Shown here in pieces: positions 1,381 through 28,262 of a stretch of 64,000 nt of DNA. The stretch covers positions 260 through 64,259 of the forward strand of contig JBDSBG010000005.1 in assembly GCA_039921685.1 (NCBI GenBank), given 5' to 3'. A program made the position numbers and the translations under genes. The notes beneath the pieces were generated by a model. The model had not been told where the DNA came from. It saw only the letters and a program-made list of their open reading frames with translations, and ran no database searches. The DNA comes from Ferruginibacter sp. (GTDB lineage: Bacteria > Bacteroidota > Bacteroidia > Chitinophagales > Chitinophagaceae). Positions within the stretch are counted from its first letter, which is position 1. Each line of letters opens with the position of its first letter.

Positions 1381-2394
1381 ATGAACAAGACAGAACAACA
1401 TATCATTATACATGCGCTGGAACACCTGCAGAATACAACAGGGGTGAGAACAAAATTCACTCCTGCTGTAAAGGATAAGTTTATTGATGGAACAGTTGAT
1501 TTTATAATGAAGGATAAGAAAACACTATTTTTTATTGAGGCAAAAAGAGAGTTAAGGACTCATCATTTACCAGCCATTACCGAACAAGCAATCAAGTATA
1601 ATCCTTTGCTTGTAATAGCAGAAACTATTTTTCCAAAATTAAAAGAAGAGCTCCGTAAACAAAATATTGCTTACTTAGATGATGCAGGCAATGCCTATAT
1701 TAACTATCACGACCTGGTTATTTTGATTGATGGCAAAAAGAATGAAAAAAAAGCATATAAATTAACTAACCGGGCATTTACGAAAGCGGGTCTTAAAGTT
1801 GTGTTTCATTTATTGTTGGATGAAGAATTAATAAATCTTCCTTACAGAGAACTGGCAAAAATGGCTGAAGTGGGATTGGGTAATATTAATAATGTAATGA
1901 CGGGTCTAAAAGATATGGGCTATGTATTGCAGTTAGATAATAAAAGAAAGAAATTACAAAAGAAAAATGAATTGTTAGATCGATGGATGAATGGTTTCGC
2001 CGAAATATTAAAACCAGCTTTGCACGTTGGCAATTTTAGATTTGCAAAAACAGAAGAATTTAATAACTGGAGAAAAATACGTGTAGAAGGGCAAGATACT
2101 ATTTGGGGTGGAGAGCCGGCTGGTGATATTTTAACTGATGATTTAAATCCAGCCAATCTAACGATATATACCACAAAGAAAAAAGCAGACATAATGAAGC
2201 AGTTTAAAGCTGTACCGGACCCGGGTGGTAAAATTAAGGTATATCAAAAATTTTGGAACCATCCGGCACAATGGAAAAAAGCGATTGCCCCGCCTTTGTT
2301 AGTCTATGTTGATTTAATTTTAACCGGTGACCCAAGATGCCAGGAGATAGCTAAAAAGATATTTGATAGACATCTGAAAAATGAGTTTATATAA
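1381..2394 (+). CDS. Type IV TA system AbiEi-family antitoxin / transcriptional regulator
   Basis: Central HTH-like segment (LPYRELAKMAEVGLGNINNVM), WGGEPA and PPLLVYVDL motifs typical of the Bacteroidota AbiEi_2-like family; overlaps the downstream nucleotidyltransferase gene. Start taken at ATG 1381 rather than 1312. Confidence 0.75.
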   Translation: MNKTEQHIIIHALEHLQNTTGVRTKFTPAVKDKFIDGTVDFIMKDKKTLFFIEAKRELRTHHLPAITEQAIKYNPLLVIAETIFPKLKEELRKQNIAYLDDAGNAYINYHDLVILIDGKKNEKKAYKLTNRAFTKAGLKVVFHLLLDEELINLPYRELAKMAEVGLGNINNVMTGLKDMGYVLQLDNKRKKLQKKNELLDRWMNGFAEILKPALHVGNFRFAKTEEFNNWRKIRVEGQDTIWGGEPAGDILTDDLNPANLTIYTTKKKADIMKQFKAVPDPGGKIKVYQKFWNHPAQWKKAIAPPLLVYVDLILTGDPRCQEIAKKIFDRHLKNEFI

Positions 2395-12600: not shown

Positions 12601-12786
12601 GGCAAACCATAAAAATCCATCATTATCCTGTAAGCCGTCATAAACAAAACCTTGTGACAGGCCATCGTCAACAGTTATTTGAGGCATCCGGACAGTTTCA
12701 ATAGCAATACTATCCTGTGCAAATGCATTATTGCTATAAAAAAACATCAGTAAAAAAAGGGAAAAGAGGCGCCTTGATATGATCAT
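9643..12786 (-). CDS. Sensor histidine kinase with periplasmic beta-propeller (Reg_prop/Y_Y_Y) and HisKA_3/HATPase domains
   Basis: DGLSQGFV/DGFLWFATMDGLNRYDG propeller repeats, YTNLNPGSYTFYV Y_Y_Y domain, TM helix, IARDLHDEIGS H-box, KEAINNAAKYA, DDGNGF, GNGLPNM. Confidence 0.95.
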   Translation of the reverse strand: MIISRRLFSLFLLMFFYSNNAFAQDSIAIETVRMPQITVDDGLSQGFVYDGLQDNDGFLWFATMDGLNRYDGYNFIVYKHDPENPYSLPENSINCIAKDDKDNLWIGTRTKGLYIMDKRTDRFYPVPISSSLNKDNNFSITKITSLQNRLYIKTNAGMMICRTGKLANDDVSVQEQQVHVMQLFPLTNEDEYQLRVTGRHSFLINSFGSLEIFAEEKKDTNWTRKTLTANDLGIKSFDWTSHFFLMDSVNNLLIFHQGHIYLYNLLKKQINLLASYGNHRINGLTLIKNKIYTCAYEDGVGNTLYEFDLIDHSLKKYHPGNDVRLLQVMFKDRTGVLWIRTDAAGICLFNSKLQAFKAAPYMGRNVLGTKKMIVNPYEKELSRGIFEFFPKDRRFKKLLSSKVSEQEKDYSLFDFIDHRNRFWKANHNGTHKNILIEYDTVNKQVSKHDLGFKYILLLFEDHENRLWCVHRGGDEMLNIYLTRLDKQNSAVDQTWISPVKMINTDGRFIMGHWQDQQQVFWFATDVGLISFDPSQTDQTKIWKHWKNIPADNSSLSADKLISLCPDPREPQKYLWLGTRGSGFNRFEIATGKCMRYSEKDGLANNVAYDIVPDDLGNLWISTNMGLSCFTPPGPTFPKGKFRNFTEEDGIAGNEFNGLTGKKLLTGELFFHGVKGTTWFKPGDVLQQQDAVPINFISLSVNNKILQWEKDSSVINGNIAYSKQISLRHDQNIFSISFSSMDFRNKKGKLYSYYLEGFDKDWTEPSPQHSVTYTNLNPGSYTFYVRGSNTDGKWNEKGNSIHIVIVPAWYQTWFFKIATILFAVGSVYLLYRWRLAQQTKLLRVRNSIARDLHDEIGSTLSSISLSSAIIQKKMDDNTGGTEGLLKQISSNTDAMMEAMSDIVWAINTKNDRFENVVNRMRAFAIEILEPKGCVIHFANNKNLDGLKLDMAQRKNLYLLFKEAINNAAKYAASSNVWIDISMNEHRMLVLKIKDDGNGFSLATVENGNTGMAGNGLPNMRKRAQELNGTLNIHAGKGIGTQIILEFRI

Positions 12787-13037: not shown

Positions 13038-15914
13038 ATGAGAAAAGTATCACTGCTTTTGATCGCATGCACGCTTTTTACTACTGTAAAATCCCAACAA
13101 CTTGTGGTTGATAGTATTTCCTTCACGCTAAATGCGGGTGCAACCTGTACCCGCATTGGTGATCTTACTGCACATGCTGCAGGCGGTACTCCTTATGCAA
13201 GCGGGCTTCCTTATGATTATTACTGGTATGAATTGGTATACAACAATATAACTGGAGGTGACGATACAGTGGCGTTGAACCTGCCTGCCGACAGTGTTGC
13301 CAATGACCTGCCACCGGGAAAATACCTAGTAAAAGTGCGTGATATAGTTCCTGACTCCGCTTACAGTCAATACTTTAATTATCCGGCCAATAACCTCTCC
13401 ATAACTAGCATGCTTACGTCTTGCTATGGCGGAAGCAATGGTATTTTGAATTCAGAGGATAATGGGGGGGATATTGTGAGTTATTTATGGAGCAACGGAG
13501 ATACGGGCATTTATGCGGATTCACTTGCGGCAGGCACTTATACTGTCATCGTAACTAATTCTTCAGGCTGCCAGGATGTTTTTTCCGGAACAGTCAATGA
13601 GCCGGATGAAATACATTTCAATGCATCGGTTTCGCTCACCTGCAATTTTAATACGAATGGCAGGCGAATTTCAATCGATCTGTCAGTCACTGGCGGAACT
13701 CAGGATGGAACAGGTAATTATACTTCTTATTTATGGAACGGGCCATCCGGTTTTACAGGAACGTCACAGGATATCATAAACAACTATGGCGATGATGGTG
13801 GAACTTATAATGTCGAGGTAACAGATGATGAGGGTTGCACAGCAGATACAACTTTTGATTTTGTAGCCTACCAACATCTTTTTGCAACCGGCTCCCAATA
13901 TTTAATTACCAATCCTACTTGTTATGGAGCTGCTAACGGTTCAGTACTTGTCGACCAGTTTGGAGGAACTGCACCATATGTTTTTCTTTGGGGAGAGGGC
14001 GGATCACCCAATACTTTTTATGCCTCAAACTATATCAGCGGCCTGGTTGAAAATGCATATTATGTTTATAATGTCTCTGACGCCATTGGCTGTATAAAAA
14101 ACCTTCTCACTCCTTTAGCGTTTGATGTGCTGCAGCCCCCACAGCTTACCGGTAGCTTGTCAGTTATGGATGTGCAGTGCAATGATTCTTCAACAGGATC
14201 GATCAATTTAATTATAAACGGAGGCACTCCTTTTATGGCCAGTGGTACACCAACTTATCATTACTACTGGAGCAATGGTCCGGTTAATACCGAAAGTATC
14301 AGCAACCTGCACGCGGGTTCTTATGATGTGGTAGTTATTGATTCGATGGGTTGCGCAATTACGCTGGATACAACCATCATAAACCTGAGTCCTCCCATCA
14401 CGACTTCCAGCACACATTTTGATTTATTATGTAACTCCATTCCACAGGGATGGGCAAAGCTAACGGTTGCCGGGGGGGAACCTGCCGGTGGCCCACAACC
14501 GTATCAATGCGCCTGGACGGGCCCCATGGTCACCATACCCGGAAATGGTACCGATTCCATTTACAACCTGCAGGCAGGTAGATATTATGTAACGGTTACG
14601 GACGTGTTCTTATGTCAGAAATTTGACTCGGTATTGATCTTACAGCCGCCCAATCCTATCAGCATTGTTTTGGATACAACAAGTGTTACTTGTTATGGGG
14701 GAACGAATGGATCAGCAATTGCCATTGTTTCCGGCGGAACAGCTTTTACAACCGGGCTGCCCTATAAGTATTACTGGACAAGAGCTGGCTTCAGCGACAC
14801 TACAGATGCTATTAGCAATCTTTCGGCTGCAAACTACCTGTTACGTGTAACCGATGCTAACGGTTGCTATAAAGATACATCTATCCAAATACTGGGGCCC
14901 GAGGTACTGGTCATTAATGGAAATGCTCAGCCGCCATTGTGCCCGCAATCATGTAATGGATTTATACAGCTGAATTATAACGGCGGGATCACGGGCGGAA
15001 CAGCTCCATATAATTTTGTATGGAGCAATGCAAGCGATTCGCTGAATATTACAAACCTGTGCGCGGGCAATTATACTATTTCAATAACGGATGCCCACTT
15101 CTGTACGGCTTCGAAGTCGTTTGAATTGATAGATCCGGCGGGAGAAGTAATTCACCTGGGTCCGGATAAAACCATTTGTAGTAATCAAACTTATTATGCG
15201 GATGCAACCGTAAGCCAACCGGCAACATATGCATGGACAAGTGACAATGGTTTTACGGCACAAACAGCGGTTGCCGCTATAACACAGGCAGGCACTTATT
15301 TTGTGGAGGCTACTACAACAACGGGTGGTTGCATCTCCAAAGATACCATTGCTATTTCGGCAAGCAATGAGCAAATCTCTTCCGAATTCATTGTATCCAC
15401 GCAGGCCTTCAGGGGCCAAACGGTTCGAGTGGTAAATATCAGTGAGCCCAGGCCAGCAAGCGTAGAATGGCTCATCCCCAATTCACCCAATATCACCGTA
15501 CAGAGTTCAAGTCAAACAATGATTGAATTACTTTTCAGTCAAACAGGCACGTACAGCATCGGGATGAAATCATTCTCCGGCTCCTGCGAAGATTCTACCA
15601 AAAAAGAAGTGATCGTAGTAGAGCCTGAACCTTTTAATCCCCTGACACAGGTAGATGATCCGCTGATACGGGAGTTCACCGTTACTCCAAATCCAAATAA
15701 CGGGCAGTTTAGGGTTTACATAAAATTGAAAGAGATAAGCAGGGTCAGGTTGCGGTTGTATAATCTCGTAACATCTTCCCTCGAGAATGACCGGGGGGCC
15801 AACAATGGTTCAGAATATACACTTTCGTATAATCTTAACCTTTCAGCAGGCGTTTATGCACTGCTGTTAGAAACGCCTAAATCAAGCATGGTGTATAAAA
15901 TTCTTGTTCAATAA
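13038..15914 (+). CDS. SprB-repeat surface protein with T9SS type A C-terminal sorting domain
   Basis: Signal peptide; many C...GS(I/A)...GGT.PY.Y.W repeats; C-terminal FTVTPNPNNGQF...LSAGVYALLL...YKILVQ. Confidence 0.85.
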   Translation: MRKVSLLLIACTLFTTVKSQQLVVDSISFTLNAGATCTRIGDLTAHAAGGTPYASGLPYDYYWYELVYNNITGGDDTVALNLPADSVANDLPPGKYLVKVRDIVPDSAYSQYFNYPANNLSITSMLTSCYGGSNGILNSEDNGGDIVSYLWSNGDTGIYADSLAAGTYTVIVTNSSGCQDVFSGTVNEPDEIHFNASVSLTCNFNTNGRRISIDLSVTGGTQDGTGNYTSYLWNGPSGFTGTSQDIINNYGDDGGTYNVEVTDDEGCTADTTFDFVAYQHLFATGSQYLITNPTCYGAANGSVLVDQFGGTAPYVFLWGEGGSPNTFYASNYISGLVENAYYVYNVSDAIGCIKNLLTPLAFDVLQPPQLTGSLSVMDVQCNDSSTGSINLIINGGTPFMASGTPTYHYYWSNGPVNTESISNLHAGSYDVVVIDSMGCAITLDTTIINLSPPITTSSTHFDLLCNSIPQGWAKLTVAGGEPAGGPQPYQCAWTGPMVTIPGNGTDSIYNLQAGRYYVTVTDVFLCQKFDSVLILQPPNPISIVLDTTSVTCYGGTNGSAIAIVSGGTAFTTGLPYKYYWTRAGFSDTTDAISNLSAANYLLRVTDANGCYKDTSIQILGPEVLVINGNAQPPLCPQSCNGFIQLNYNGGITGGTAPYNFVWSNASDSLNITNLCAGNYTISITDAHFCTASKSFELIDPAGEVIHLGPDKTICSNQTYYADATVSQPATYAWTSDNGFTAQTAVAAITQAGTYFVEATTTTGGCISKDTIAISASNEQISSEFIVSTQAFRGQTVRVVNISEPRPASVEWLIPNSPNITVQSSSQTMIELLFSQTGTYSIGMKSFSGSCEDSTKKEVIVVEPEPFNPLTQVDDPLIREFTVTPNPNNGQFRVYIKLKEISRVRLRLYNLVTSSLENDRGANNGSEYTLSYNLNLSAGVYALLLETPKSSMVYKILVQ

Positions 15915-15952: not shown

Positions 15953-18900
15953 ATGCGGAAACTCTTTAAATATAACGGCCATTACCTGTTTTGTGTTTCA
16001 AACAGCAAACTAAAACGGGTTTTTGTTCTCCTGCAGTTTTTATTATTGTTCCTGTTGAAATCACAGGCACAATACCCGGTAAGGGTTACACCCCAGCTCG
16101 TAGGATTACCTTCTTTATACCTTAGTGATTATTACAATCCCGCGGCTCCAGAATTATATATAATGATTACAAACGCCGATCTGCAAAGGCCTTTACTCGA
16201 CGTTAGGCTGCGCATGAAGATCAGGGGAGCTGGCGCTGTAATAACCAGCAAAGAAAATATTCAATACCCGTCCATTTCATTGCCCGCCGGTCTTCCACAG
16301 AGAATCGGTCCCGATGAGCTGGCATTTTATTTTAACCCTTCTAATTTCAATGCCATTGGCCTTTCACAGCCAAACAAGCTTCCTGCCGGGTTTTATGATT
16401 TTTGTTTTGAAGCGGTAGAGATAGGAACAGGGATTACAGTGGGCAGGAGTGAATGTTCTTATACAACTATTAGCCTGAATGCACCGCCAACTTTGCTGCA
16501 GCCATCCAATAATATGGATGTAATTCTGAATGACCCTACTAATATCATTTTTCAATGGTCCCAACTTTTTAATAGTCTCAATATTGCCAACACTACAGAA
16601 TATACTTTTCAACTCGTCGAGTTGCTGGATAACAATATTTCTCCACAGGATGCTTTTCTCACTGCGCAGCCGCTTTATCAAACAACGCTTACCAACACGG
16701 TATTGCAGTATGGGTCCGGGGAACCTTTATTGTTGCCGGGTAAACGATATGGATGGCGGGTACAGGCCCGCAATACGGCCGATATTAACCAGGCAGGTAC
16801 TTATGTGAACAATGGTTACAGCGAGATTTTCTCTTTTACTTATAATGAAAGATGCGGAGCTCCCTTAAGCCTCTCTGCCACTCCCAAACCGGATGGCAAA
16901 GTAAATCTTCAGTGGCAGGGAATGCCGCGGGCTGTTGAATACATGATTCAATACAGCAGTGCCGAACAACCAAATCCGGCAATAATAACCGCACCTACTA
17001 ACGTAATACAATACACCATTACGGGAGCTGTGAGGGGTGAATTATATAATTACCGTGTGGGTACCCGGTGTAATGCGGGCGGAGAAATTGTGTACAGTCC
17101 TTATGATACTTTCCGGGTAGCCATAGACCCGGTAAACGCCGATGCGGTTACGGGTAAGATTGTATGGGCATTTAAATTATCGGAAGAAACAGCTGATCCT
17201 TCTGCGGACGAATTGGTTTCGAGAACAAAACTCAATGATGATTCGCTTTATAAAGCAGAGAATAATACGATTGGTAACACAAAATATAACCTGCAACATG
17301 CCAGTGTGAGTCTGACTATTGTGTATAGAACTAATAGTCCTTGGCAACCTAATGGGTCCACTTCACTCACCACAACCACAGCGGAAAACGGTACCTATAA
17401 TATTGTAATACCTTCACAATATGACGGTAAGTTGCTGCCTGATGCTACCCTGACAATTTCACATCCTTCAGGATTATTCAAAGCGTTTCAAAAGGCAGTA
17501 CAACTTGTTAGAACCCCCCAAGGATATGTATTGGGAACAGATGTGCTTTCAGCAAGAACCCTTTCATTGAAACCCTCTGTATATATTCCCAATTATAACG
17601 GCGTAGCCCCGGTGTCGGTTGATGTATTAATGGCTGAAGCTGACTGGTTGCAATATCCTTTTATGCGCACAGCAGGTCTCGGTAACGAGGACAGTCGTTG
17701 TCAATATAATTACCAGAGCTACATTGTACTTAAAACACTTACCGATGGTAAAGAATTCAAAAAACTCTTTTACAATGCATTGCCCAGCCAAAATTATGTA
17801 ATACGGGTAAACTACCAGGACCGGCTAGCTGTATACTATCCCTTAAACAACCAGTGCGGTTATATTAATAATGCATCATCCGATAAAGTAAAACTGCTGA
17901 AAAAATCTTTCATGTTTAACCTCGACATAAGTGTAGAAGGGCGCATCACTTACCAGGGCCACGATCAAAGAGATGTAAGGGTAAAAATTGTCATCAATAA
18001 AAATGATGCACCCTCAGATTACTATGTAAGTCCAGCCAATACCTCAGGGAACGAATATATATTTGAAACAACCTCCGATGGATGGGGTTTTTACGGGCGG
18101 TCGGCTTTACCACCACTCAAAACCGGTGCAATAGTGAAAATATCACTCACCGATCAAACCATCCGCCCCGAACCATTCTGGTATTCCGTTGTGTACGATA
18201 ATTCGGAAATACTCCGGAAAGATATCACGATCATTAATTATCTCTATACTGTGACCGGGCGTGTAGTTGATCAGCAGGGTGAGCCTGTTTCAAATGCATC
18301 GGTAACGTTGTTGGGTAGTTCAATACCGGTAGCGCCTGTACGAACATCATTGCGTGGCTATTACATGATTAAATTGAACAACAGCAGTACAGAAGCGCTT
18401 GATTTCCCAAGATCACTTGAATTCAGGGTAGACGGCTTCGACCCGGTAACAACAACACTTTCTTTAGCAACCACCGATAACATCACTACTAATAGCGGCA
18501 ATATAAGCCCTAATGATTGGAAGCTTGCTATTGAAAGAAAGCCGCTATTCGCTGCCGTCATCAATTCATTTCCGGGAGGAACAGTTACGGCAGATATCCT
18601 TGGTATTGGGACAGGAACCCTTGCCAATAATTTTAATAACTATATCGGGTATGATGCCGAGTTGAAAGGAGTTATAGATGCCGGTAGTTCAACAGTGCAG
18701 GTAAAAAAAGGGATGCTTGAAGTAAAAGTAAGGCTCCAGGGTAATGGTTTCCTCCAGGGAAACCTGATCAAAGCTAAAGTAATATTAACGGGAGACAATG
18801 ACCAGGCCTTTGAAGGAGAAACACCCGACGACGACACTTACTACCAAAAAAACCTGTTGCCCGGGCGGTACAGGTTAGAAGTGCAGCCTATTTCCGGCGG

Positions 18901-21900
18901 AACAATGTTTGCAAATTATGAAGGGGAATTCGATATCATCGGTAATGGAATAAGAACCATTAATGTAATTGTACAGGAGGGCGCAATCATATCGGGAACG
19001 GTTACCAACAGGGCAACGGGTTCACCAATTGATTCGGTGTCGATCAATGTAGTGGGAATGCCTTACTCAGGAATGACAAATGCACAGGGTAAATATGCTT
19101 TTGTTGTTCCTAAAGGACTCGAATTTGACTATCATTTTTCGCAAAAGAATTATAATTCATCTGATACAAGTTTTAGAACCTATACTGATCTGCAGGTTAA
19201 TTATAAACTCGATATGCGTGACCCGAATATGCCACAGATCATTACCATGTCAGGTTTCCCGGTACAAATTGATAAGGTTGCTGCCGCTGGTTTTGGAACC
19301 TATGTTATTTCAGGAAAACTAACGTTAACCAAAAATGATATCTATACGCCCGACTTCGGCGATGAAAAGCTCAATTTCATAGGTGTGTCGGTAAAGATGG
19401 ATAGCAAAAAACAGGGCAATGCTGTTCCGCTTGCAAATGTTGCTTTTGAAGAGGCTGTGATTTCTACCATAGCATTTGATATTACAACGGTAGAGGTTAC
19501 CGGCTACCCGCAAATCACCATGAAAGGTGTAAAAGAAGGTAATACACAAAACAGGGAGAAGGGTATCATTGGCGGAACATCACTGAAAGCCATCTTTGGT
19601 TCCAGTGTGAAAGTAATTCTGCTCCCGATAAAATTAAAAGATGCCGAAATCCGAAGCAAAGATCCCGGTGTTATTGCTGCTAACCAGGAACTGGCCAACC
19701 AGGGATTGAAACCTTTTGCCTACGTTTACTCGTCACCTGATAATCCAATCCATGCACTTTCGGCCAACCAGAAATTTAACCTGGTCTTTCCCAGGGATAC
19801 TATTAATTCTCTTAATACTTCTACTGGTGTACTAACGCAGGACCGTGATACGGCAAAAGGACATGTACTTATATCCTTCAATTTTATTGTGGATAAAATA
19901 TTCAAACTCTATCTAAAAGACACCGCCGAATTCAGCAAAGACGGTTTCGACCTGGCCGGTTTCGTGAAGTTCAATTCTATTATCTCTGCTAAAATGGCCG
20001 ACTCGGGTAAAGTAAAAATTAAAAAGTTTAAAATAGATAATGAATTTAAAGTACCGGAATTCACTTTCGAACTCAATGAAGCAAAGCCATGGAAAATAGG
20101 TCTTCAAAAATCAACGGTATTTGTACAGAATATAAGTATCCTTGGTATTGGAACTTCAAATCCCGGTGTTGGGTTTGGTGGCATCTGGATCCCTACAACA
20201 AAAGAAAAGCAAGATACCGCCATCATAAAAACTTTATCGGTGAGTTATACTTCAAGCGGACTTGCCCTGGCAGGTAGTTTTAAGCTCACTAAAAAAGGAC
20301 TGAGTGTGAAGGGAATTGTTTTTAAAACGCCCGGGGCCGAAGATTATCTTTCTTTTTCACTCGATCCTTCAAAATCTTCTTATAAAATTGAAGCCGCAGG
20401 AATACTCGACTACAATAAAGAGCAATCAAGTACAACCCCCTCGTCAGATGGCGGTAGTAATGAAGGATTGAAAGCTATTTTCCCAATAGAAATTCAAAAA
20501 TTTTCTCTTGATCTCGGGAAATGGAATTTGTTCCTTGCTGCAAGGGCAAATATCACGAAGGATTTTAAAGTTGTAAAGATCAGCGTCACCAACCTGCTTA
20601 TCAGTATCGGGTACAATAAAACGTTAGATGAAATGAATACTTATCTAACAAACGGCGAGGTTACAGAAAATACATTTGCCGCTGCGGGACCTGAAGATCA
20701 GCCGCTGGAAGAAGCCAATGCATCCTGGGCAATCGGGATCAATGGCGGGCTTTCATTTCCCCCGACGTTTAAAGGGATGTCTGCTTCGGGAAGCGGCTCA
20801 TTCCTTATTGGAAATGTAAATAATAAGATCGAGGTCAGGATGAATGAGATCGAGATCCACATCATTGAACCTGCTCTTGAGGTATTGGCCTCCGTTAAAC
20901 TTGGGTTGAGTGCAGATAAAATAGGTTTTGAAGCGGCCGCAACTATTGTGACCATAAAAAGAACATTTGAAGCGAAGTTTAAATTTTACAAGATCCCTTC
21001 GGGAATTATACTGGGGGCCGACTTAACAGTTGCCGGTCCGTTTACAACCGGTCCTATCGTATGGCATAGCATCGGCGGCGGCTTCGATTTTAATACCGCA
21101 GAACAGAAATATACTTTCAAAATAACGGGAGATGCGGGGCTTGCCGGTACAACCAAAGAAGTGGGTTATCTAAAAGATGCCACATTAAAATTAATATTTG
21201 ATGGCATTGATTGCGACGGCTGGCCCGTGGTTGAATTTGAGGGCACCTTAATGATGAAAGATAAGGAAAGGGGTAAATGCGAAGCAGTCATAGATTTTTG
21301 CAAGAGCCGATTCATGATAAAGGTATCAACTACCATACCTGTTGCCTCAGGAATAGATGTGTATGTTACAGGTTTGTTCTTTTGCATTGCCAGGAAAATA
21401 AACAATGTTGAAACCGGGTCGATGCTTTTAGGAGTGAATGCAAACCTTACTTCCATGGGTGATATCCTCAAGGGAAATATCCGCCTTGTCCTGGGAATAA
21501 ACTATAATAACAATGACCAGTATTCGCCGCAGGAAACAAGAGACTGGTTTAATTACGTGGATAATGACGCCAAAGATTACCGCACAAAATATGAAAATGC
21601 CGGTTACGGCAACCTGGTTTTCCTCAATGGCCTCTATATTTCGGGTACCACCAATGTACCAGAGCAACACGCCAGCTTCGACCTTACGGTGAACACTGAT
21701 GGGGGAAATATTACCTTATTGGCTGGTGGCTACGATTTCAAAGCAAGTGCAAGTGCCCAGTTAATTTATAAACCACCCAGACCGTTAAGTCCCAAAGATT
21801 ATTTTTTTGTAAGAGTTCAACTCCATGCAGAAGCAACTGCCTACTTAACTGTATTAATGATATCTCTTGGTGGTTCAGGTACAGTTGATGCAGAAATACA

Positions 21901-22240
21901 GGGGGGATACGATGGCAGTGCCTGGTATCTCAATGGGAATGCGGACATGAAAGTAGCAATATGGGGTGGGATCAACGGGGAGGCCGCCGGCTGTAACGAC
22001 TATGTTACAGCTTATTACAGGACCTGTACCTACTGGAAGGTTGATTGTTGTCAGCCGTGTTGGGACGATTGTGACAGGAGGGTGCGTGAGAATGCGGAAA
22101 AGGGATGTTTTTTAAAATGTACTGACGAATCCTGTGTGAACTGGCCTTATGGCGTTGGTTTCAAGGGATGCTTTGGTATGGCAGCAAGCTTTGATTACAG
22201 GCAGGGGCAATCTACCAAAATAAGTTTTAGCAAGTTTTAA
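15953..22240 (+). CDS. Large secreted TANFOR-like protein with FN3 and carboxypeptidase-regulatory-like domains, long beta-rich region and Cys-rich C-terminal tip
   Basis: After the signal peptide, QYPVRVTPQLV..SLYLSDY..LPAGFYDFCFEAVE resembles the TANFOR domain; then FN3 (LSATP..VNLQW..Y..RV) and YTVTGRVVD/ISGTVTN modules; 10 Cys encoded in 21992-22171. Confidence 0.75.
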   Translation: MRKLFKYNGHYLFCVSNSKLKRVFVLLQFLLLFLLKSQAQYPVRVTPQLVGLPSLYLSDYYNPAAPELYIMITNADLQRPLLDVRLRMKIRGAGAVITSKENIQYPSISLPAGLPQRIGPDELAFYFNPSNFNAIGLSQPNKLPAGFYDFCFEAVEIGTGITVGRSECSYTTISLNAPPTLLQPSNNMDVILNDPTNIIFQWSQLFNSLNIANTTEYTFQLVELLDNNISPQDAFLTAQPLYQTTLTNTVLQYGSGEPLLLPGKRYGWRVQARNTADINQAGTYVNNGYSEIFSFTYNERCGAPLSLSATPKPDGKVNLQWQGMPRAVEYMIQYSSAEQPNPAIITAPTNVIQYTITGAVRGELYNYRVGTRCNAGGEIVYSPYDTFRVAIDPVNADAVTGKIVWAFKLSEETADPSADELVSRTKLNDDSLYKAENNTIGNTKYNLQHASVSLTIVYRTNSPWQPNGSTSLTTTTAENGTYNIVIPSQYDGKLLPDATLTISHPSGLFKAFQKAVQLVRTPQGYVLGTDVLSARTLSLKPSVYIPNYNGVAPVSVDVLMAEADWLQYPFMRTAGLGNEDSRCQYNYQSYIVLKTLTDGKEFKKLFYNALPSQNYVIRVNYQDRLAVYYPLNNQCGYINNASSDKVKLLKKSFMFNLDISVEGRITYQGHDQRDVRVKIVINKNDAPSDYYVSPANTSGNEYIFETTSDGWGFYGRSALPPLKTGAIVKISLTDQTIRPEPFWYSVVYDNSEILRKDITIINYLYTVTGRVVDQQGEPVSNASVTLLGSSIPVAPVRTSLRGYYMIKLNNSSTEALDFPRSLEFRVDGFDPVTTTLSLATTDNITTNSGNISPNDWKLAIERKPLFAAVINSFPGGTVTADILGIGTGTLANNFNNYIGYDAELKGVIDAGSSTVQVKKGMLEVKVRLQGNGFLQGNLIKAKVILTGDNDQAFEGETPDDDTYYQKNLLPGRYRLEVQPISGGTMFANYEGEFDIIGNGIRTINVIVQEGAIISGTVTNRATGSPIDSVSINVVGMPYSGMTNAQGKYAFVVPKGLEFDYHFSQKNYNSSDTSFRTYTDLQVNYKLDMRDPNMPQIITMSGFPVQIDKVAAAGFGTYVISGKLTLTKNDIYTPDFGDEKLNFIGVSVKMDSKKQGNAVPLANVAFEEAVISTIAFDITTVEVTGYPQITMKGVKEGNTQNREKGIIGGTSLKAIFGSSVKVILLPIKLKDAEIRSKDPGVIAANQELANQGLKPFAYVYSSPDNPIHALSANQKFNLVFPRDTINSLNTSTGVLTQDRDTAKGHVLISFNFIVDKIFKLYLKDTAEFSKDGFDLAGFVKFNSIISAKMADSGKVKIKKFKIDNEFKVPEFTFELNEAKPWKIGLQKSTVFVQNISILGIGTSNPGVGFGGIWIPTTKEKQDTAIIKTLSVSYTSSGLALAGSFKLTKKGLSVKGIVFKTPGAEDYLSFSLDPSKSSYKIEAAGILDYNKEQSSTTPSSDGGSNEGLKAIFPIEIQKFSLDLGKWNLFLAARANITKDFKVVKISVTNLLISIGYNKTLDEMNTYLTNGEVTENTFAAAGPEDQPLEEANASWAIGINGGLSFPPTFKGMSASGSGSFLIGNVNNKIEVRMNEIEIHIIEPALEVLASVKLGLSADKIGFEAAATIVTIKRTFEAKFKFYKIPSGIILGADLTVAGPFTTGPIVWHSIGGGFDFNTAEQKYTFKITGDAGLAGTTKEVGYLKDATLKLIFDGIDCDGWPVVEFEGTLMMKDKERGKCEAVIDFCKSRFMIKVSTTIPVASGIDVYVTGLFFCIARKINNVETGSMLLGVNANLTSMGDILKGNIRLVLGINYNNNDQYSPQETRDWFNYVDNDAKDYRTKYENAGYGNLVFLNGLYISGTTNVPEQHASFDLTVNTDGGNITLLAGGYDFKASASAQLIYKPPRPLSPKDYFFVRVQLHAEATAYLTVLMISLGGSGTVDAEIQGGYDGSAWYLNGNADMKVAIWGGINGEAAGCNDYVTAYYRTCTYWKVDCCQPCWDDCDRRVRENAEKGCFLKCTDESCVNWPYGVGFKGCFGMAASFDYRQGQSTKISFSKF

Positions 22241-22256
22241 AACTCAGTAACAGCAA

Positions 22257-24374
22257 ATGAAAAAAAATATTACAATCTCGGTTATTTACCTGTTGGCCAG
22301 CCTATCATCATTAAGCCAGAACAGGGACTTCGGAAAACTATTGGTATCCGGCGCTTCTCCAAGAGGCAATTATGTTTTTCTTTTCAATGATCTGGAATTA
22401 CTGGAAAAAGATAAAACATTGTTTGAAAGTACTGCCTATTTCCTTGTAGAGAGGATACTGCATGATAGCATTGCGGACAACATGAAAAAAGCCGGGTTTA
22501 AAAAAATTGCTGAATTAAAACCGGTATCTGATATTAAATCACTCAAGGCATTTTACAGCAGCGACCAGGTAGTAGAAATAAAGAATGTGTTTAAGCTCTC
22601 TTCCGATAAAATGCTGATTGAATATTTTCAAACGCATCACAGGGCAAGTGATTTTCCATTTTTCTACGAGATCGTTGAAACCAGGCAGGCCATGGGCCAT
22701 GTGTTCCTAGATAAGAATGTAAAAGTAGGGGAACACTATATGTACAAGATCACGAGAGTGCTAAAGAATAAAACAACCGAGCCCTGGGGTTATACGCTGG
22801 TGCAATCTAAATCGGGTAATGAACAGTTGGATCAACTGGCACCAAGGGTTACCGCAGTGAAAGGTTATGATAGCTCTGTTACCATTACCTGGAAAATGCC
22901 GGTTCCCAAAAATGCCGCTCCCGGCAGTCAGTCAGAAAAACCACTTCTTTCCCAAAAAAAGAAAAAAATCAGCTATGGCTTCCCGTTAGAACTGGCCAAT
23001 ACAAGGGCAAAAATATTCGTGACGGAAGATGGCAGGTTTAAGGAAGCGAAAAAATTGTTTCCTGTTGTAAATAAAACAAAAGACACGGTTACTTATACTT
23101 TTTCAAAAAGATGCATGCCCGAAGATGCTGTGGCCGCTTATATGGTAACAGAGGATGAAATATACAATGAAGGCCCCGTGTCGGACACTGCATTTGCTTT
23201 TGCCATTGAAGAAAAGTCCATCCCCTTAATACTGGGTGTACGCTCACAAGATATCTTAAATGGCGTTAGGCTTTCCTGGAACCCATTGCCTTCAAAGCCT
23301 TATATAACAGGGATTGAAATAAAAAGATACAGCGATGATAAAACGCTTGATTCAGTGGCAACACTACCGCCTACAGATACCAGTTTTATAGATTACAACA
23401 TGGCCGTGGGCGTTAACTACAGGTACCAGGTGAAAGCCTTGTTCCTTCCCGCTATTGGCATAGAACAAAAAATGCCGGCACAAACTGCCGGAACCTATAC
23501 TAAATTTTCAAGGCCCCTGCCAGCTTTTAACCTTGTTGCAGAAGTTTCAAAAAATAACATTCAACTCAAATGGGATGCGGTGGATGAGACTTCGCTCTAT
23601 GGGTATTATGTTTACAGGGGTACATCGCCGAGGAGTTTCGATCTTATTGCAGGTCCAATAAAAATCAAAAGCTACCTGGATAGCGCTGCTTCATTAAGTG
23701 GACGGACAGCTTACTATTACAAAGTGCTTACCCAAAACCTTCGCCAGGATACCAGTGAATATTCACCGGTTGTTCGGATTGTGCCCGAAAGAGCGATCGA
23801 AATTACACAGCCAGACAATCTTGATTTTTATTATGTCAACGGTGTTGTACGCATTTCCTGGAATGATGTGCGTACAAATGACAACGCTATTGAAAAATTC
23901 CTCTTGCAAAAAAGAGCAAAAGGAGAAAAAGATTTTATTACCCTAACAGCAAAACCGGTAAACCAGAACTATGTCGATGATTCACTGATTACCGAAGGAG
24001 TGGAGTATGAATACAGGGTGGCCTCGGTAAGTTTCAAAGGAGATGTAAGTGGCTATGGCAATGCAGCAGGCTATATACTACCTAAACGTGATTTGATGCC
24101 GATGAAAATATTTTATGTACGCAATACTACAGAAGGAATAACCATAACATGGCCACAGGTATTAATGGGAAGAAAATCCTATAATATCTACAGGCGGGAA
24201 GCATCAGAAGAAAAATTTATAAAAATTAAAACCGTGCCGGCAGATACTTTTTCCTTTGTTGACAAAACGGCTGCAGCGAATACCATTTATGTTTACTCAC
24301 TCACCGCTTCAGAAACAGACGATCGGGAATCAGCGAGAATTAAATCTATTTCAATCAGGAGAACAATTAAATAA
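22257..24374 (+). CDS. Secreted fibronectin type III repeat protein
   Basis: Signal peptide; repeated W...Y.(I/V)YR...(Y/F).D...Y.Y.V FN3 signatures; no sorting domain. Confidence 0.8.
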   Translation: MKKNITISVIYLLASLSSLSQNRDFGKLLVSGASPRGNYVFLFNDLELLEKDKTLFESTAYFLVERILHDSIADNMKKAGFKKIAELKPVSDIKSLKAFYSSDQVVEIKNVFKLSSDKMLIEYFQTHHRASDFPFFYEIVETRQAMGHVFLDKNVKVGEHYMYKITRVLKNKTTEPWGYTLVQSKSGNEQLDQLAPRVTAVKGYDSSVTITWKMPVPKNAAPGSQSEKPLLSQKKKKISYGFPLELANTRAKIFVTEDGRFKEAKKLFPVVNKTKDTVTYTFSKRCMPEDAVAAYMVTEDEIYNEGPVSDTAFAFAIEEKSIPLILGVRSQDILNGVRLSWNPLPSKPYITGIEIKRYSDDKTLDSVATLPPTDTSFIDYNMAVGVNYRYQVKALFLPAIGIEQKMPAQTAGTYTKFSRPLPAFNLVAEVSKNNIQLKWDAVDETSLYGYYVYRGTSPRSFDLIAGPIKIKSYLDSAASLSGRTAYYYKVLTQNLRQDTSEYSPVVRIVPERAIEITQPDNLDFYYVNGVVRISWNDVRTNDNAIEKFLLQKRAKGEKDFITLTAKPVNQNYVDDSLITEGVEYEYRVASVSFKGDVSGYGNAAGYILPKRDLMPMKIFYVRNTTEGITITWPQVLMGRKSYNIYRREASEEKFIKIKTVPADTFSFVDKTAAANTIYVYSLTASETDDRESARIKSISIRRTIK

Positions 24375-24376
24375 AA

Positions 24377-25717
24377 ATGAAAAGAAACCCTTTTGCTCTA
24401 TTGATCACAGCCCTTTTGTTTTTTTCCTGCAGCAAGGAAGTAAAGATCCCTGTACTGATCGATTTTACTGCTGAAAAAGAAACAGCAAGTAATACTGTGC
24501 CGGTGAATGTGATCATCACCAATAATACCACCGGGGCTACCAGTTATAAATGGAGTTTTGAAGGCGGGGAACCCTATATTTCCACAAAAAAGCATCCCGG
24601 TATAATTGCATTCAATTTAGCGGGCCAACATATCATAAAACTCGAAGCCTCCAATGAGTTTGAAACACAAATCAAAGAGTATAGCATCAATCTCGATAGT
24701 GCCGTAACAATTGATTTTAATGCTGATATTCTCATCAATAACTTTTCGCCTGTTACTGTTCACGTCGAAAATCTAACTACGGGTGCCACTGGATTTTCCT
24801 GGACATTCGACGGGGGCACTCCCGCCAGCTCTGGTCTTCAACAACCAGGAGATGTGAATTTTACAAGTGCCGGCGATCACAATATTACACTAACGGTAAG
24901 CAATGGAGGAAGTTCTTTCACCACTATCAAAACGATTACGGTTGCCCCGCCTCTTGCAGCAGATTTTGAAATAATTCCCTCTTTTGAGGACGATGATTAT
25001 CAGGCTCCCTTAACAGCACAATTGCACAATTCTACCATCAGTGGTACTACCTGGCAGTGGACAAGCAACGGCGGGGTGATTAGTGATGCTACTGCAGAAA
25101 ATCCATCGATTAATTTTGCCGGCCCGGGCTCCTATATAGTTACACTCACTGCAGACAACAGTAAAAACACAGAGGTAGTCACCAAAAATATTATTGTACT
25201 TCCCAATACCAGTTTAAGGACAATTACTGACGTGAGGTTTGGGATCCTTGCAGCGCACGGAAGTGTTGGAAGTTTATACGCTACGCGATTGAGAACAAAT
25301 TTTACCGCAGCAGATAACCTTGATACCTCCGGGGCATGGATAGACCTTGCTTTCTTTGGTTTTGATGCAGGCTTTTCCTATAACAAATTCATTTCGCCCG
25401 ACTCTGTTCAAAACTATGGTTTCGATGCAATTCCGCAGGCACAACATACGATACTGATTAATTCACAGGAGACCTGTGGATGCGGACCGGTATTTACGGA
25501 TGCAGATTTCGATAACATGGCAGATGTAACGCCCCTGCTGTCGCTAAGCATTTTTACTACACCGGGTGGTTTGAGTCCGTTCTCCAATGGCCTGACGAAC
25601 CGGGTGGTTTTATTTCAAACAGCAGATGGCAGGCGTGGCGCTATAAAAATTAAAAGCTTTGTAGCAGCAGGAGCCAATTCATATATCCTTACGGATATCA
25701 AGGTTCAAAAAAACTAA
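24377..25717 (+). CDS. PKD-domain lipoprotein
   Basis: Lipobox LFFSC; three PKD repeats with W.F.GG.P..S / FT.AG.H.ITLTV motifs. Confidence 0.8.
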   Translation: MKRNPFALLITALLFFSCSKEVKIPVLIDFTAEKETASNTVPVNVIITNNTTGATSYKWSFEGGEPYISTKKHPGIIAFNLAGQHIIKLEASNEFETQIKEYSINLDSAVTIDFNADILINNFSPVTVHVENLTTGATGFSWTFDGGTPASSGLQQPGDVNFTSAGDHNITLTVSNGGSSFTTIKTITVAPPLAADFEIIPSFEDDDYQAPLTAQLHNSTISGTTWQWTSNGGVISDATAENPSINFAGPGSYIVTLTADNSKNTEVVTKNIIVLPNTSLRTITDVRFGILAAHGSVGSLYATRLRTNFTAADNLDTSGAWIDLAFFGFDAGFSYNKFISPDSVQNYGFDAIPQAQHTILINSQETCGCGPVFTDADFDNMADVTPLLSLSIFTTPGGLSPFSNGLTNRVVLFQTADGRRGAIKIKSFVAAGANSYILTDIKVQKN

Positions 25718-25756
25718 AGATTCGTATTGGCTGATTCATTTTTAAAAATTAAAACA

Positions 25757-27478
25757 ATGGCCCGAATACAAACCCGGTTCACAAAAGTGCTCATCGCAAC
25801 TGCATTGATGCATCCCAGCATTGTTGCCGCACAAAAAACCATTGATCTTGAAAAGGGTCTAAAGAAAAGCTGGAAATTATCGGGTGGACTTTCGGCAAAT
25901 ACTATTTTTTATAATGGCAATGGTGGGAGTGGCAGGGATCCGTTTACTTATTATTTACTGGGTAATCTTAATCTTAATATAGCCGGGTTGATTGATCTTC
26001 CCTTTTCTTTTAACATCAATAATATCGGTCACCAGTTCAATTATCCCAAGTCACCACAACGGTTGAGCGTAAGTCCCAAATATAAATGGATCACTGCCCA
26101 TATCGGTGATATCAGCATGAACTTCTCTCCTTATACATTGAATGGTTACCAGTTCAGGGGAATTGGAATAGACCTTGATCCCAAAGGAAAATTCAAATTT
26201 AACGTGATGGGTGGCCGGCTTCAGAAAGCGGTGGAATATGATAGCACCAACCGGGTTATACCGGTGGCGTATAGCCGCTTTGGATATGGAGCCAAAATTG
26301 AATTCAAAAAAGAAAAATACACGCTTGGCTTCATTGCTTTTGCAGCGAAGGACAATGCAAATTCGCTTAAAGACAAACCCGATAGCCTGAAGATATTCCC
26401 ACAACAAAATCTTGTTTTAAGCGGCATAGTCAACTATATGCCAGCTAAGAATATTGAACTCTATGGCGAGTATGCAGGCAGCGCTTTAACAAGAGACCTG
26501 CGTGATACTACGGTTACCGACTACCAGGGAAACAGCAGTCTTAAATATCTTTTTGATACAAAAAACTCCACTTCGATTTACAACGCAATAAAAGCAGGGT
26601 TAAAATATTCTTATAAAAACAGCAGGATTGGTGTGGGCTATGAAAGGATAGACCCGGGTTACCAAACCATGGGATCTTACTATTTCAATAATGATCTTGA
26701 AAATATTACCATAGATATTTTTCAGCCGTTTCTTAAGGGGAAAGGAAATATCAATGCCAACCTCGGCTTTCAAAAAGATAACCTGGATGGGCAAAAGCTC
26801 AGTTCAACCAAAAGAGCGGTTAGTTCTTTTACTGCCAGTTACGCACCCAACCAGAAATTCTATGTAACAGCGGGTTATTCAAATTTTACCACCTTTCAGC
26901 GGGTGAATCCATTGTTTCAATCTATCAATCAAACCACGCAGTTCCAGGATACCGAGTTGCAGGACTTTTCACAGGTATCAAAAAATGCGAACCTGAATGT
27001 GAATTATATGTTTAAGAAAACGGCTAAAACCTCTAATACCATCAATCTGCTACTGAGTTTTTTAGATGCAGCCGACAGGCAGGGGGGGATCGTAAAATTT
27101 GGAAACGGCTCGCAGTTCTACAATGCAACCGCATCGTATACACTGACATTGGCTCCTAAAAATACGAGAATTACGACAGCATTTAATTATTGTCATAACA
27201 CCGTTGCTAAAAATGATTTCACTATCATGGGGCCAACTGTTTCCATCAATTCTAAATTATCTAAAACACTTTCGGGTAACCTCGTTGCTTCTTACAATAC
27301 AACTATCAGCGGAACATCAAAAGAGAATAACATTTTCAATACACGCCTTGGCCTTAATTATAACTATGGAAAAAAACATACCCTAGCCCTGAGTTTGCTT
27401 AATCAATTACGCGATGTGAAGGACAAGAAACAAACAAACGACCTGGTTGCAACATTTGGGTATAACTACGTTTTTTAA
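25757..27478 (+). CDS. Outer-membrane beta-barrel protein
   Basis: Signal peptide, alternating amphipathic strands and C-terminal aromatic (GYNYVF); SPKYKW..H.GD..M.FSPYTL.G motif. Start set at MARIQ. Confidence 0.75.
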   Translation: MARIQTRFTKVLIATALMHPSIVAAQKTIDLEKGLKKSWKLSGGLSANTIFYNGNGGSGRDPFTYYLLGNLNLNIAGLIDLPFSFNINNIGHQFNYPKSPQRLSVSPKYKWITAHIGDISMNFSPYTLNGYQFRGIGIDLDPKGKFKFNVMGGRLQKAVEYDSTNRVIPVAYSRFGYGAKIEFKKEKYTLGFIAFAAKDNANSLKDKPDSLKIFPQQNLVLSGIVNYMPAKNIELYGEYAGSALTRDLRDTTVTDYQGNSSLKYLFDTKNSTSIYNAIKAGLKYSYKNSRIGVGYERIDPGYQTMGSYYFNNDLENITIDIFQPFLKGKGNINANLGFQKDNLDGQKLSSTKRAVSSFTASYAPNQKFYVTAGYSNFTTFQRVNPLFQSINQTTQFQDTELQDFSQVSKNANLNVNYMFKKTAKTSNTINLLLSFLDAADRQGGIVKFGNGSQFYNATASYTLTLAPKNTRITTAFNYCHNTVAKNDFTIMGPTVSINSKLSKTLSGNLVASYNTTISGTSKENNIFNTRLGLNYNYGKKHTLALSLLNQLRDVKDKKQTNDLVATFGYNYVF

Positions 27479-27725
27479 AAGGTAGGGGGAACAGTTATTT
27501 GGCCCTTTTTTAAATTTTTCAGTCTGCGGCTGCTGTCGAACCTATGTTTTGCCTTTCACAATACAAGTAGGTACAGTCCATTGAACAGACGTTGCATTTG
27601 CGGGCATGACCGCCAGCGTATAGCTATGAACACAGCAAGCCTGCAACAAATCCCTAAATTTGTACCCGCTATACTTGTACCCAAATAAAATGGGTACAAC
27701 CGCTATTGATACAAAATCAAAAAAT

Positions 27726-28262
27726 ATGAACTACTTAGTCAGGTTGCGCAAAAATTCAGGCCTCAGCCAGAAAGAAGTTGCTGATTATATCTGCGTTTCA
27801 AGAAGTCTTGTCAACCTGGCAGAGAAAGCCTTACGGGAATTGCCAAAAGAGGCAAAGGCGAAGCTTGCCGATCTGGAAGACCTGGTAAATGCGCCTGACT
27901 TTAACAAGAAACCCGTGAAGGAAACTTTCGATGACGAAGGAGTTCAGGAATTTAAAGAATATCACCAACTAAAGATGCGGGGCTATTTATTTAAGGCAGA
28001 AGGATTGCGTCTACGATTGAAGGTTATGGTTGAAGCTCAGCAAAAGGCAGCTTTAAAGTTTAAGTTGGTGAATGGATTGTCAAACAGCAACACTAAAAAC
28101 AGTAAAAACAAGATGCACGCTATTTGGACTAAAAACCATGAATTGCAAAGCGGTAGCAAATTAAAAAAATCCATTCCCGCTATACGGATGCTTACTTACG
28201 ATATTGAAGTGCTGATGGGATATGCAGCTGTTCATGAAAAAATATTAAAAAAGATATTTTAG
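27726..28262 (+). CDS. XRE-family HTH protein with helical C-terminal extension
   Basis: LVRLRKNSGLSQKEVADYICVSRSLVNLAEK HTH; start set at MNYL. Confidence 0.75.
   Translation: MNYLVRLRKNSGLSQKEVADYICVSRSLVNLAEKALRELPKEAKAKLADLEDLVNAPDFNKKPVKETFDDEGVQEFKEYHQLKMRGYLFKAEGLRLRLKVMVEAQQKAALKFKLVNGLSNSNTKNSKNKMHAIWTKNHELQSGSKLKKSIPAIRMLTYDIEVLMGYAAVHEKILKKIF

Follow-up and report, generated by a model that had tools for sequence, protein, structure and literature searches.

A Putative Cystine-Laddered Arm on the Conserved C-Terminal Domain of a Toxin-Free, TANFOR-Headed Protein Class from Bacteroidota

The window analysed here is a 64,000-nucleotide stretch of DNA from Ferruginibacter sp. (assembly GCA_039921685.1, contig JBDSBG010000005.1, positions 260 to 64,259 of the forward strand), and the element under study is a cluster of ten cysteines near the C-terminus of P0001, a giant protein encoded within it. 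In our reading, to which a probability of roughly 0.55 is assigned, the cluster forms a cystine-laddered ribbon on the conserved beta domain of a toxin-free class of proteins and acts there as an exposed contact element. The structural description taken separately, a cystine-laddered hairpin, carries good confidence; binding as the specific function of this arm is more tentative, at somewhat below even odds. The segment would be a projecting two-stranded beta-ribbon arm, its base stapled by a disulfide between C2014 and C2073 and its strands cross-linked by further disulfide rungs, and it would rise from the penultimate hairpin of a conserved all-beta domain of ~500 residues and 24 strands. 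Proteins that combine the N-terminal head of P0001 with its beta body and terminal hairpin are referred to below as class G, and those that have only the head in common as class T.

Cysteine Cluster and Predicted Structure

P0001 is a protein of 2095 residues, encoded by an open reading frame (ORF) at 15953–22240 on the + strand, as given by the ORF list and the translation, and it is collinear with ~80 clusters of relatives. Base 21992 opens the codon of Cys2014, and base 22240 closes the stop codon. Ten cysteines (2014, 2025, 2032, 2033, 2036, 2040, 2052, 2056, 2061 and 2073) fall within the 60 residues 2014–2073, with CC, C-x2-C and C-x3-C spacings among them, compared with 11 in the remaining 2035 residues; a binomial estimate gives ~1e-6 for the chance of such a cluster in any 60-residue window of the protein. 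All the motifs quoted in the sequence-only reading are present in the translation, which confirms its count of ten cysteines in 60 residues at the C-terminus. An origin of the segment in a tandem DNA repeat or a compositional anomaly is rejected, as no sign of either was found in this region. Based on the translation, the family loop table, the mirror symmetry and parity of the cysteines and the predicted strands, the putative arm spans 21992–22171 (+); it is followed at 22172–22240 (+) by the closing strands FGMAASFDYRQGQSTKISFSKF, which are conserved according to the tail alignment and the unmatched-tail table, and by the stop codon.

The C-terminal part of the protein was modelled twice with AlphaFold2 (AF2), once over residues 1100–2095 with 24 sequences (predicted local distance difference test score, pLDDT, 78.9; predicted template modelling score, pTM, 0.46) and once over residues 1585–2095 with 36 sequences (pLDDT 87.2, pTM 0.73). 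Both runs return the same secondary structure, namely 24 antiparallel strands that run up and down in a meander starting near residue 1589 and reaching the C-terminus. The all-beta domain predicted in this way, together with alignment A1, covers residues ~1589–2095 (20717–22237, +), with strands of 11–29 residues. In the models, the Cys segment extends the penultimate hairpin, the strand 2016–2031 pairing with the first part of the strand 2055–2083, so that the segment is flanked by predicted beta strands in both runs, in agreement with the beta-strand-like flanks proposed from the letters alone. The pLDDT is 73–91 in the basal ribbon and ~50 in the distal loop 2032–2054.

The spacing of the cysteines is consistent with such a ribbon. 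Measured from the base, they lie at offsets of 0, ~11, ~18–19 and ~22–24 on the N-terminal arm and of 0, ~11–12, ~16–17 and ~21–22 on the C-terminal arm. Across related family sequences, the mean mirror distance is 1.40, versus 3.79 ± 0.54 in within-loop shuffles, and none of 2000 shuffles gives a value as low. Furthermore, 33 of 36 loops contain an even number of cysteines, with totals of 2, 4, 6, 8, 10 and 12 all represented. Because the AF2 hairpin, the even parity and the mirrored offsets fit together, it is suggested that cross-strand rungs are added pairwise as the ribbon lengthens. The pairing predicted on this basis is C2014–C2073, C2025–C2061, C2032–C2056 and C2036–C2052, with an additional local C2033–C2040 bond. 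Collectively with the conserved base Cys pair described below, these observations support the disulfide-stapled hairpin that had been postulated for the tip. That the segment is oxidised and lies outside the cytoplasm is suggested by the signal peptide together with the even number of cysteines.

Several observations weigh against this reading. The mirror symmetry of P0001 taken alone is not significant (p ~0.10), and the loops entering the mirror test come from related, non-independent sequences. In loops built from repeats, such as that of P0022, the symmetry could arise from local disulfides within tandem C-x4-C units instead of rungs, and the Cys count is odd in 3 of the 36 loops. The loop of P0001 itself is without a close match among its relatives, the nearest being a partial resemblance to P0014. 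Finally, P0005, P0007 and L085 have a loop of 14–19 residues with no extra Cys; since these members keep only such a short loop, the arm appears to be dispensable for the fold.

The density of the cysteines and their CC, C-x2-C and C-x3-C spacings would also be compatible with metal binding, which would echo a putative copper- or metallothionein-like island located 6 kb downstream in the window. This explanation is extremely improbable and is rejected on the basis of the Cys-count pattern and the comparison of loci: the totals of 2–12 follow the even-number pattern of disulfides, not multiples of a metal site, and the same hairpin occurs in loci of other genomes with none of the metal-handling genes of that island among the tabulated large same-strand ORFs. 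Moreover, the signal peptide points to folding in an oxidising compartment, and neither a conserved His nor a conserved CxxC knuckle pattern is present.

Family Conservation of the Cysteine Loop

Relatives were collected by an exhaustive HMMER search with residues 1100–2095 of P0001 as the query, which yielded 80 representative clusters. Nearly all full-length class G members are 1850–2200 residues long and collinear with P0001 starting at the signal peptide, and the tail alignment places the C-terminus of most class G relatives within 0–5 residues of the end of P0001. Owing to this collinearity and to the closely coinciding ends, the C-terminus of class G is not considered polymorphic. Across 36 aligned sequences, no variation occurs at C1754, C1783 or C2014, while C2073 shows conservation of at least 90%, and the base of the loop is marked by the motifs C-N-S/D at C2014 and F-K-x-C at C2073. 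Between these two positions, the 36 loops comprise 14–78 residues and 0–10 extra cysteines. The commonest loop state has ten cysteines in total, as in P0001; consequently, the tip is no exception but the most frequent form within its class.

The residue window 2021–2060 is the most gapped and the second least conserved of the entire protein. Within a given loop type, by comparison, the loops are conserved as much as or more than the 110 residues upstream (76% vs 34%, 60% vs 33% and 68% vs 40%), which indicates a functional constraint on the loop. A replacement of the tip was sought among members that are 97–99% identical (1–49 differences per 2030 residues), and none was found; in the tail of P0003/P0193, the one pair checked, 3 conservative changes fall inside the loop, which is about the chance expectation. 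Replacement between near-identical strains is therefore rejected, the differences being few and the loop changes close to chance. In the alignment of homologues, the tip appears as a modular element that occurs in discrete types and is neither invariant nor hypervariable. As to whether the tip is the hypervariable part, a question raised by the sequence-only reading, the alignment shows variation between types but no free hypervariability.

The other conserved pair of the C-terminal domain is found around the motif DFC and consists of Cys1754 (21212–21214) and Cys1783 (21299–21301), with C1776 between them. It is probably a further structural disulfide.

Regarding composition, Trp is overrepresented in the loops (5% vs 1%), as are aromatic residues overall (16% vs 11%). 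The net charge of the loop is -1 in P0001 and ranges from -3 to +14 in the family, with no common amphipathic pattern; the loops of P0002, P0040 and P0022 are strongly cationic, rich in Trp, Arg and Lys, with net charges of +7 to +14.

Some relatives carry additional modules in their C-terminal portion. Bulb-lectin-type (QxDGNLVxY) repeats follow immediately after the terminal hairpin strands in P0070 (~2340–2650) and P0056 (~1545–2640), B_lectin being confirmed by Pfam in P0070 only and the repeats of P0056 being read by eye. P0012 (L085) contains DUF6805 and an insertion of ~300 residues, low-complexity and Ig-like, in its C-terminal half.

A conserved base Cys pair with a remainder of varying length, the second conserved pair C1754/C1783 elsewhere in the same domain, the existence of members without extra Cys, and the lack of any binding motif or known binding family detected in the tail (Pfam at E ≤ 1) would all be expected if the arm were only a structural staple, its extra disulfides hardening an exposed hairpin against proteases and unfolding with no ligand involved. 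This possibility deserves weight but is unlikely, since a mere staple does not need 40–60 extra residues, and the non-Cys residues within a loop type are conserved as much as or more than the flanking sheet. The enrichment of the loops in Trp and other aromatics and the fusion of lectin-type modules at the same end in relatives count against a mere staple as well. Taken together, the aromatic enrichment, the within-type constraint and the lectin-type and DUF6805 additions suggest that the distal end of the payload presents an exposed surface for contacts, in line with the contact-element reading.

Fold of the C-Terminal Domain

When the models are compared with the PDB by Foldseek, the best matches are all outer-membrane barrels, namely LptD (E 4e-7 with the long model and 4e-4 with the domain), FimD, Cir and porins. 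The template modelling (TM) scores of these matches are 0.15–0.28 and the root-mean-square deviation (rmsd) exceeds 20 Å, and for this reason the domain is regarded as having no global structural relative. A search of BFVD, which holds viral predicted structures, gave nothing useful. A relative among solved or viral predicted structures is accordingly rejected, the only PDB matches being barrel-like and of low TM score.

The best local 3Di matches (LptD, the FimD/PapC ushers and SlpA) share with the predicted domain an antiparallel up-and-down meander of ~24–26 strands. The 24 amphipathic antiparallel strands, the exclusively barrel-like Foldseek matches and the terminal Phe or other aromatic residue found in P0001 and in about one third of its relatives raise the question of whether the last 500 residues are themselves an outer-membrane beta-barrel, serving as a translocator or an anchor like those of autotransporters, ushers or LptD, with the Cys segment as a long loop. 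Such an assignment is improbable. Superposition fails (TM ≤ 0.28, rmsd >20 Å) despite a confident query model (pTM 0.73), and the longest strands, at 29 residues, exceed the length that a membrane barrel can accommodate. If the C-terminus is periplasmic, 24 strands would place the connections of 35 and 23 residues in the periplasm, an atypical arrangement, and long connections are present on both sides of the domain. The beta-signal is likewise not conserved: the terminal residue varies across the family (F, N, K, E, Q or Y) without a conserved aromatic end, and although P0001 ends in Phe, the hydrophobic register of its last strand is shifted relative to the canonical barrel signal and to the GYNYVF terminus of the barrel encoded in the same operon. 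Homology to that operon barrel is also rejected, the hhalign comparison of the two family profiles giving a probability of 2%.

Absence of a Toxin and of an Immunity Gene

The last 146–196 residues of P0001 match no toxin or other family in Pfam at E ≤ 1, in NCBIfam at E ≤ 10 or among PDB sequences at E ≤ 10, and the 60-residue Cys segment searched alone gives no match either, in Pfam at E ≤ 1 or among PDB chains at E ≤ 10. With the whole protein, NCBIfam returns nothing even at E ≤ 10 and Pfam only two CarboxypepD_reg domains and a weak fn3, while the family profile finds only FN3 and CarboxypepD_reg domains in the PDB. These empty searches lead us to reject a known toxin or Cys-rich family in the tail, and they agree with the view, already taken from the sequence, that the protein does not end in a recognisable toxin. 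No match to a C-terminal sorting domain of the type IX secretion system (T9SS), whether type A (TIGR04183/PF18962) or type B, was found in the giant protein. Downstream, there is no small ORF between the giant gene and the ORF at 22257, which is a large FN3 gene (705 residues, fn3 E 1e-8); the absence of an immunity gene and the identity of the next gene are both upheld, and only the spacing needs correction, from 17 to 16 nucleotides.

The contrast between loci with and without toxins emerges from a locus scan in which one genome per species was searched with an alignment of 11 closer sequences as the query. The scan produced 78 loci, 10 of class G and 68 of class T. In class G, a homologue of the 705-residue FN3 protein (FN3_705) lies right after the giant gene in 9 of the 10 loci (E 1e-72 to 1e-196), a homologue of the SprB-type adhesin bearing a T9SS C-terminal domain (CTD) lies upstream in 8, and a homologue of the ~580-residue barrel is present in 7 (E 5e-43 to 1e-191), with the shortfalls mainly in loci that end at contig ends. 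Class T loci contain no FN3_705 homologue apart from weak generic FN3 matches, and this partner thus appears, from the gene neighbourhoods, to be specific to the toxin-free class G body. A homologue of the PKD lipoprotein gene occurs in 1 of the 10 class G and 11 of the 68 class T loci.

The head proteins of class T have diverse, Cys-poor C-termini, and in most of the loci with a readable downstream ORF, an ORF of ~120–350 residues overlaps or abuts their stop codon, which reads as the classic toxin–immunity arrangement. Five class T relatives were confirmed to carry toxin-type domains at the C-terminus, namely EndoU, AHH, Tox-SHH, TNT and NS-endonuclease. No immunity-type ORF was found in any class G locus. 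P0001 accordingly shows none of the features of a polymorphic toxin, that is, a C-terminal toxin domain, an abutting immunity gene and unrelated C-termini among close relatives; both absences are expected for this class of ~2000-residue Bacteroidota envelope proteins. The proposal of a variant polymorphic toxin in which the tip replaces the toxin is not sustained, as the tip is a loop inside the conserved ~500-residue C-terminal domain of a collinear class of ~2000 residues.

The disulfide-laddered hairpin architecture, the cationic loops of P0002, P0040 and P0022 (+7 to +14) and a C-terminal position, where the sister class carries its toxins, might nevertheless suggest that the arm is the warhead of a TANFOR protein, either a membrane-active or antimicrobial beta-hairpin of the tachyplesin or protegrin type or an unrecognised small toxin. 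We consider this very improbable. The arm is an internal loop ahead of conserved strands, not a releasable terminal module, some members do not have it, and class G loci, unlike those of the toxin class, are without immunity-type ORFs. At a net charge of -1, the loop of P0001 disfavours the membrane activity that had been suggested for the tip, and a cationic antimicrobial-peptide character is rejected for this copy; nor does the family show a common amphipathic pattern.

On the same strand, a barrel homologue is found in 42 of the 68 class T loci (E 1e-29 to 1e-174), in 30 of them directly upstream of the head gene. Because barrel homologues accompany both classes, head and barrel are regarded as a constant pair, and the 583-residue barrel is a candidate partner dedicated to exporting or anchoring the TANFOR head.

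Within the genome of P0001, no second head-bearing gene was found, and in the genus survey a relative is present in 1 of 36 other species, and a divergent one. The cassette is accessory and stands alone in this genome.

Relationship to TANFOR Proteins

TANFOR is defined by the model TIGR02542 (T_forsyth_147), and Jana, Salomon and Bosis (2020) called it by RPS-BLAST, requiring an E value below 1e-7 and a match of 90 residues or more (PMC7073777). The NCBI cut-off of the model is 67 bits. TIGR02542 does not match P0001 at E ≤ 10 and finds nothing relevant in the whole genome, so that direct membership of P0001 by this model is rejected. Among its orthologues, 6 of 7 full-length sequences match the model at residues ~40–170 with E values of 6e-4 to 1e-8 and 20–35 bits, under the 67-bit cut-off; proteins named TANFOR by JGI reach 41 bits and thus also remain under it. 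The matching region of the orthologues is collinear with residues 41–170 of P0001 and occupies the same place after the signal peptide. Furthermore, residues 20–395 of P0001 match the heads of TIGR02542-positive proteins in phmmer at E 1e-55, and the family profile finds dozens of proteins of 1050–2300 residues that share just the first ~17% of their length, at E 1e-100 to 1e-150. The description of P0001 as TANFOR-like consequently holds for its head of ~376 residues, which is homologous to that of toxin-bearing TANFOR proteins (E 1e-55 to 1e-150), and does not hold for the TIGR02542 model itself, an outcome that the sequence-only reading had listed as counting against it.

Judged from these alignments, the head of P0001 appears to be a diverged TANFOR plus FN3 module. 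It spans residues ~41–395 (16073–17137, +), as delimited by phmmer, profile searches and the TIGR02542 matches of orthologues, with the divergent TANFOR part at ~41–170 and the FN3 domain at 303–378 (bases 16859–17086). The latter gives a weak Pfam fn3 match (E 3e-4, under the gathering score) and is also detected as FN3 by the PDB profile search. The head is preceded by a predicted Sec signal peptide of 39 residues (15953–16069, +), recognised by a hydrophobic stretch followed by AQ(Y/F)PVQV, with cleavage predicted after SQA. Cleavage between SQA and QYPV would leave an N-terminal Gln. Q40, P42 and V43 of P0001 are invariant or nearly so in alignment A2. A Gln after the cleavage site is a habit of Bacteroidota and fits the AQ(Y/F)PVQV motif, which is kept across the family (residues 39–41 of P0001, window positions 16070–16075). 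Between head and C-terminal domain, two beta-sandwich domains of the CarboxypepD_reg type lie at residues 766–839 and 1013–1089 (18248–19219, +; PF13620 E 1.8e-16 and PF13715 E 7e-9).

Comparison with the toxins of Jana et al. reveals both likeness and difference. Like them, P0001 has a Sec signal and a TANFOR plus FN3 head of ~376 residues, it is surrounded by genes for a SprB-repeat/CTD protein, Fn3 and PKD, and the same barrel family adjoins; genes with SprB repeats, a T9SS CTD, Fn3 and PKD appear around P0001 as in Table 1 of that work (PMC7073777). In contrast, P0001 has no C-terminal toxin, no abutting ORF of immunity size and no polymorphic C-terminus, it does not score with TIGR02542, and it possesses a conserved beta body of ~1000 residues ending in the Cys hairpin, together with the FN3_705 partner. 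TANFOR proteins are treated as polymorphic toxins, many of their C-termini being listed as unknown (PMC7073777).

Neighbouring Genes and Variant Loci

Upstream of the giant gene, a SprB-repeat protein with a type A T9SS sorting domain is encoded at 13038–15914 (+; SprB E 2e-20, Por_Secre_tail E 9e-7, TIGR04183 E 1.4e-7). The sorting-domain tails of such upstream adhesins (window 15800–15914; L013–L019 and L085) end in ..VY.L.LETPKGS...KI.IN, which is conserved in distant genomes and hints at a cassette-specific CTD subtype. Downstream follow FN3_705, an FN3 array with a signal peptide (22257–24374, +; Pfam fn3 E 1e-8), and a PKD-repeat lipoprotein that is an optional member of the cassette (24377–25717, +; Pfam PKD E 2e-17, lipobox-like FFSC). 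Next comes the 583-residue outer-membrane beta-barrel (25727–27478, +), identified by its canonical C-terminal signature, GYNYVF, and with a likely start at ATG 25757. Sequence searches of Pfam, NCBIfam and the PDB gave no match to the barrel family. Beyond the cassette lies a gene with an XRE-type helix-turn-helix (HTH) domain (27660–28262), and a gene for a beta-propeller/Y_Y_Y histidine kinase is located divergently upstream (9643–12786); either product could regulate the operon.

Two kinds of variant locus were encountered. In the split loci L027, L028, L029, L035, L037, L038, L073 and L075, a head protein of ~770–820 residues is followed 0–4 nucleotides on by an ORF of 730–1350 residues, as though head and payload were separately encoded. 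According to Jana et al., the toxin is sometimes encoded by a downstream gene (PMC7073777). Locus L009 (G049:C6), from a GC-rich distant genome, encodes a TIGR02542-positive protein of 1987 residues, then a 705-residue protein and a 560-residue barrel, in the same gene order. With phmmer, the 1987-residue protein shows no similarity to P0001, and its C-terminus is different and Cys-free. Since the gene order is kept without such similarity, the architecture of the cassette appears to outlast sequence similarity.

Comparison with Known Disulfide-Rich Elements

Theta-defensins, tachyplesin, protegrin and arenicin are cystine-ladder beta-hairpins that occur as free peptides of 17–21 residues. The arm of P0001 resembles them in its two-stranded antiparallel ribbon and its apparent succession of disulfide rungs; unlike them, it is an internal loop of a 2095-residue protein, three times longer, not cationic and without sequence relationship. 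Hevein/CBM18 and granulin are binding modules that are small, rich in disulfides and expose aromatic residues. With ~8–12 Cys in 40–60 residues, a high aromatic content and an extracytoplasmic location (presumed for P0001), they are comparable to the arm, which differs in its Cys framework and has no Pfam match at E ≤ 1.

Within the library searched, the literature search found no paper on TANFOR biology besides that of Jana et al. 2020 (PMC7073777), and it found no description of the long toxin-free class, of the 24-strand C-terminal domain or of a cystine-laddered arm of this kind.

Conclusions

The loci compared here show that a recurrent subset of TANFOR-headed proteins consists of conserved giants that lack toxin and immunity gene and have an FN3 partner of their own, sharing head and barrel with the toxins. 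In the proposed scheme, head and outer-membrane barrel would probably serve together for export or anchoring, with the body as the payload. The payload slot would be occupied in polymorphic TANFOR toxins by a nuclease or other toxin accompanied by an immunity gene, and in class G by a large non-enzymatic beta body. The arm would be an exposed and rigid contact element, rich in aromatics, through which the distal end of the molecule binds either a surface ligand or a partner protein. A bolder extension is speculative and rather doubtful: barrel and TANFOR head would constitute a route, so far undescribed, by which Bacteroidota export or display proteins, with either a toxin or a beta body in the payload slot, and the arm would be the specificity element for a target surface or partner, its types maybe exchanged between lineages like cassettes.

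For annotation, the class G rule would provide cleaner gene calls and keep these genes out of toxin catalogues. The Cys-laddered arm offers a small, defined and testable element in the search for binding targets of the toxin-free class, and it would be an uncommon case of a long disulfide ladder within a bacterial surface protein. Furthermore, their presence in both classes supports the idea of head and barrel as a transport or anchoring unit. While the tip is a neat structural feature, the role of head and barrel is the larger and more valuable question than the tip alone.

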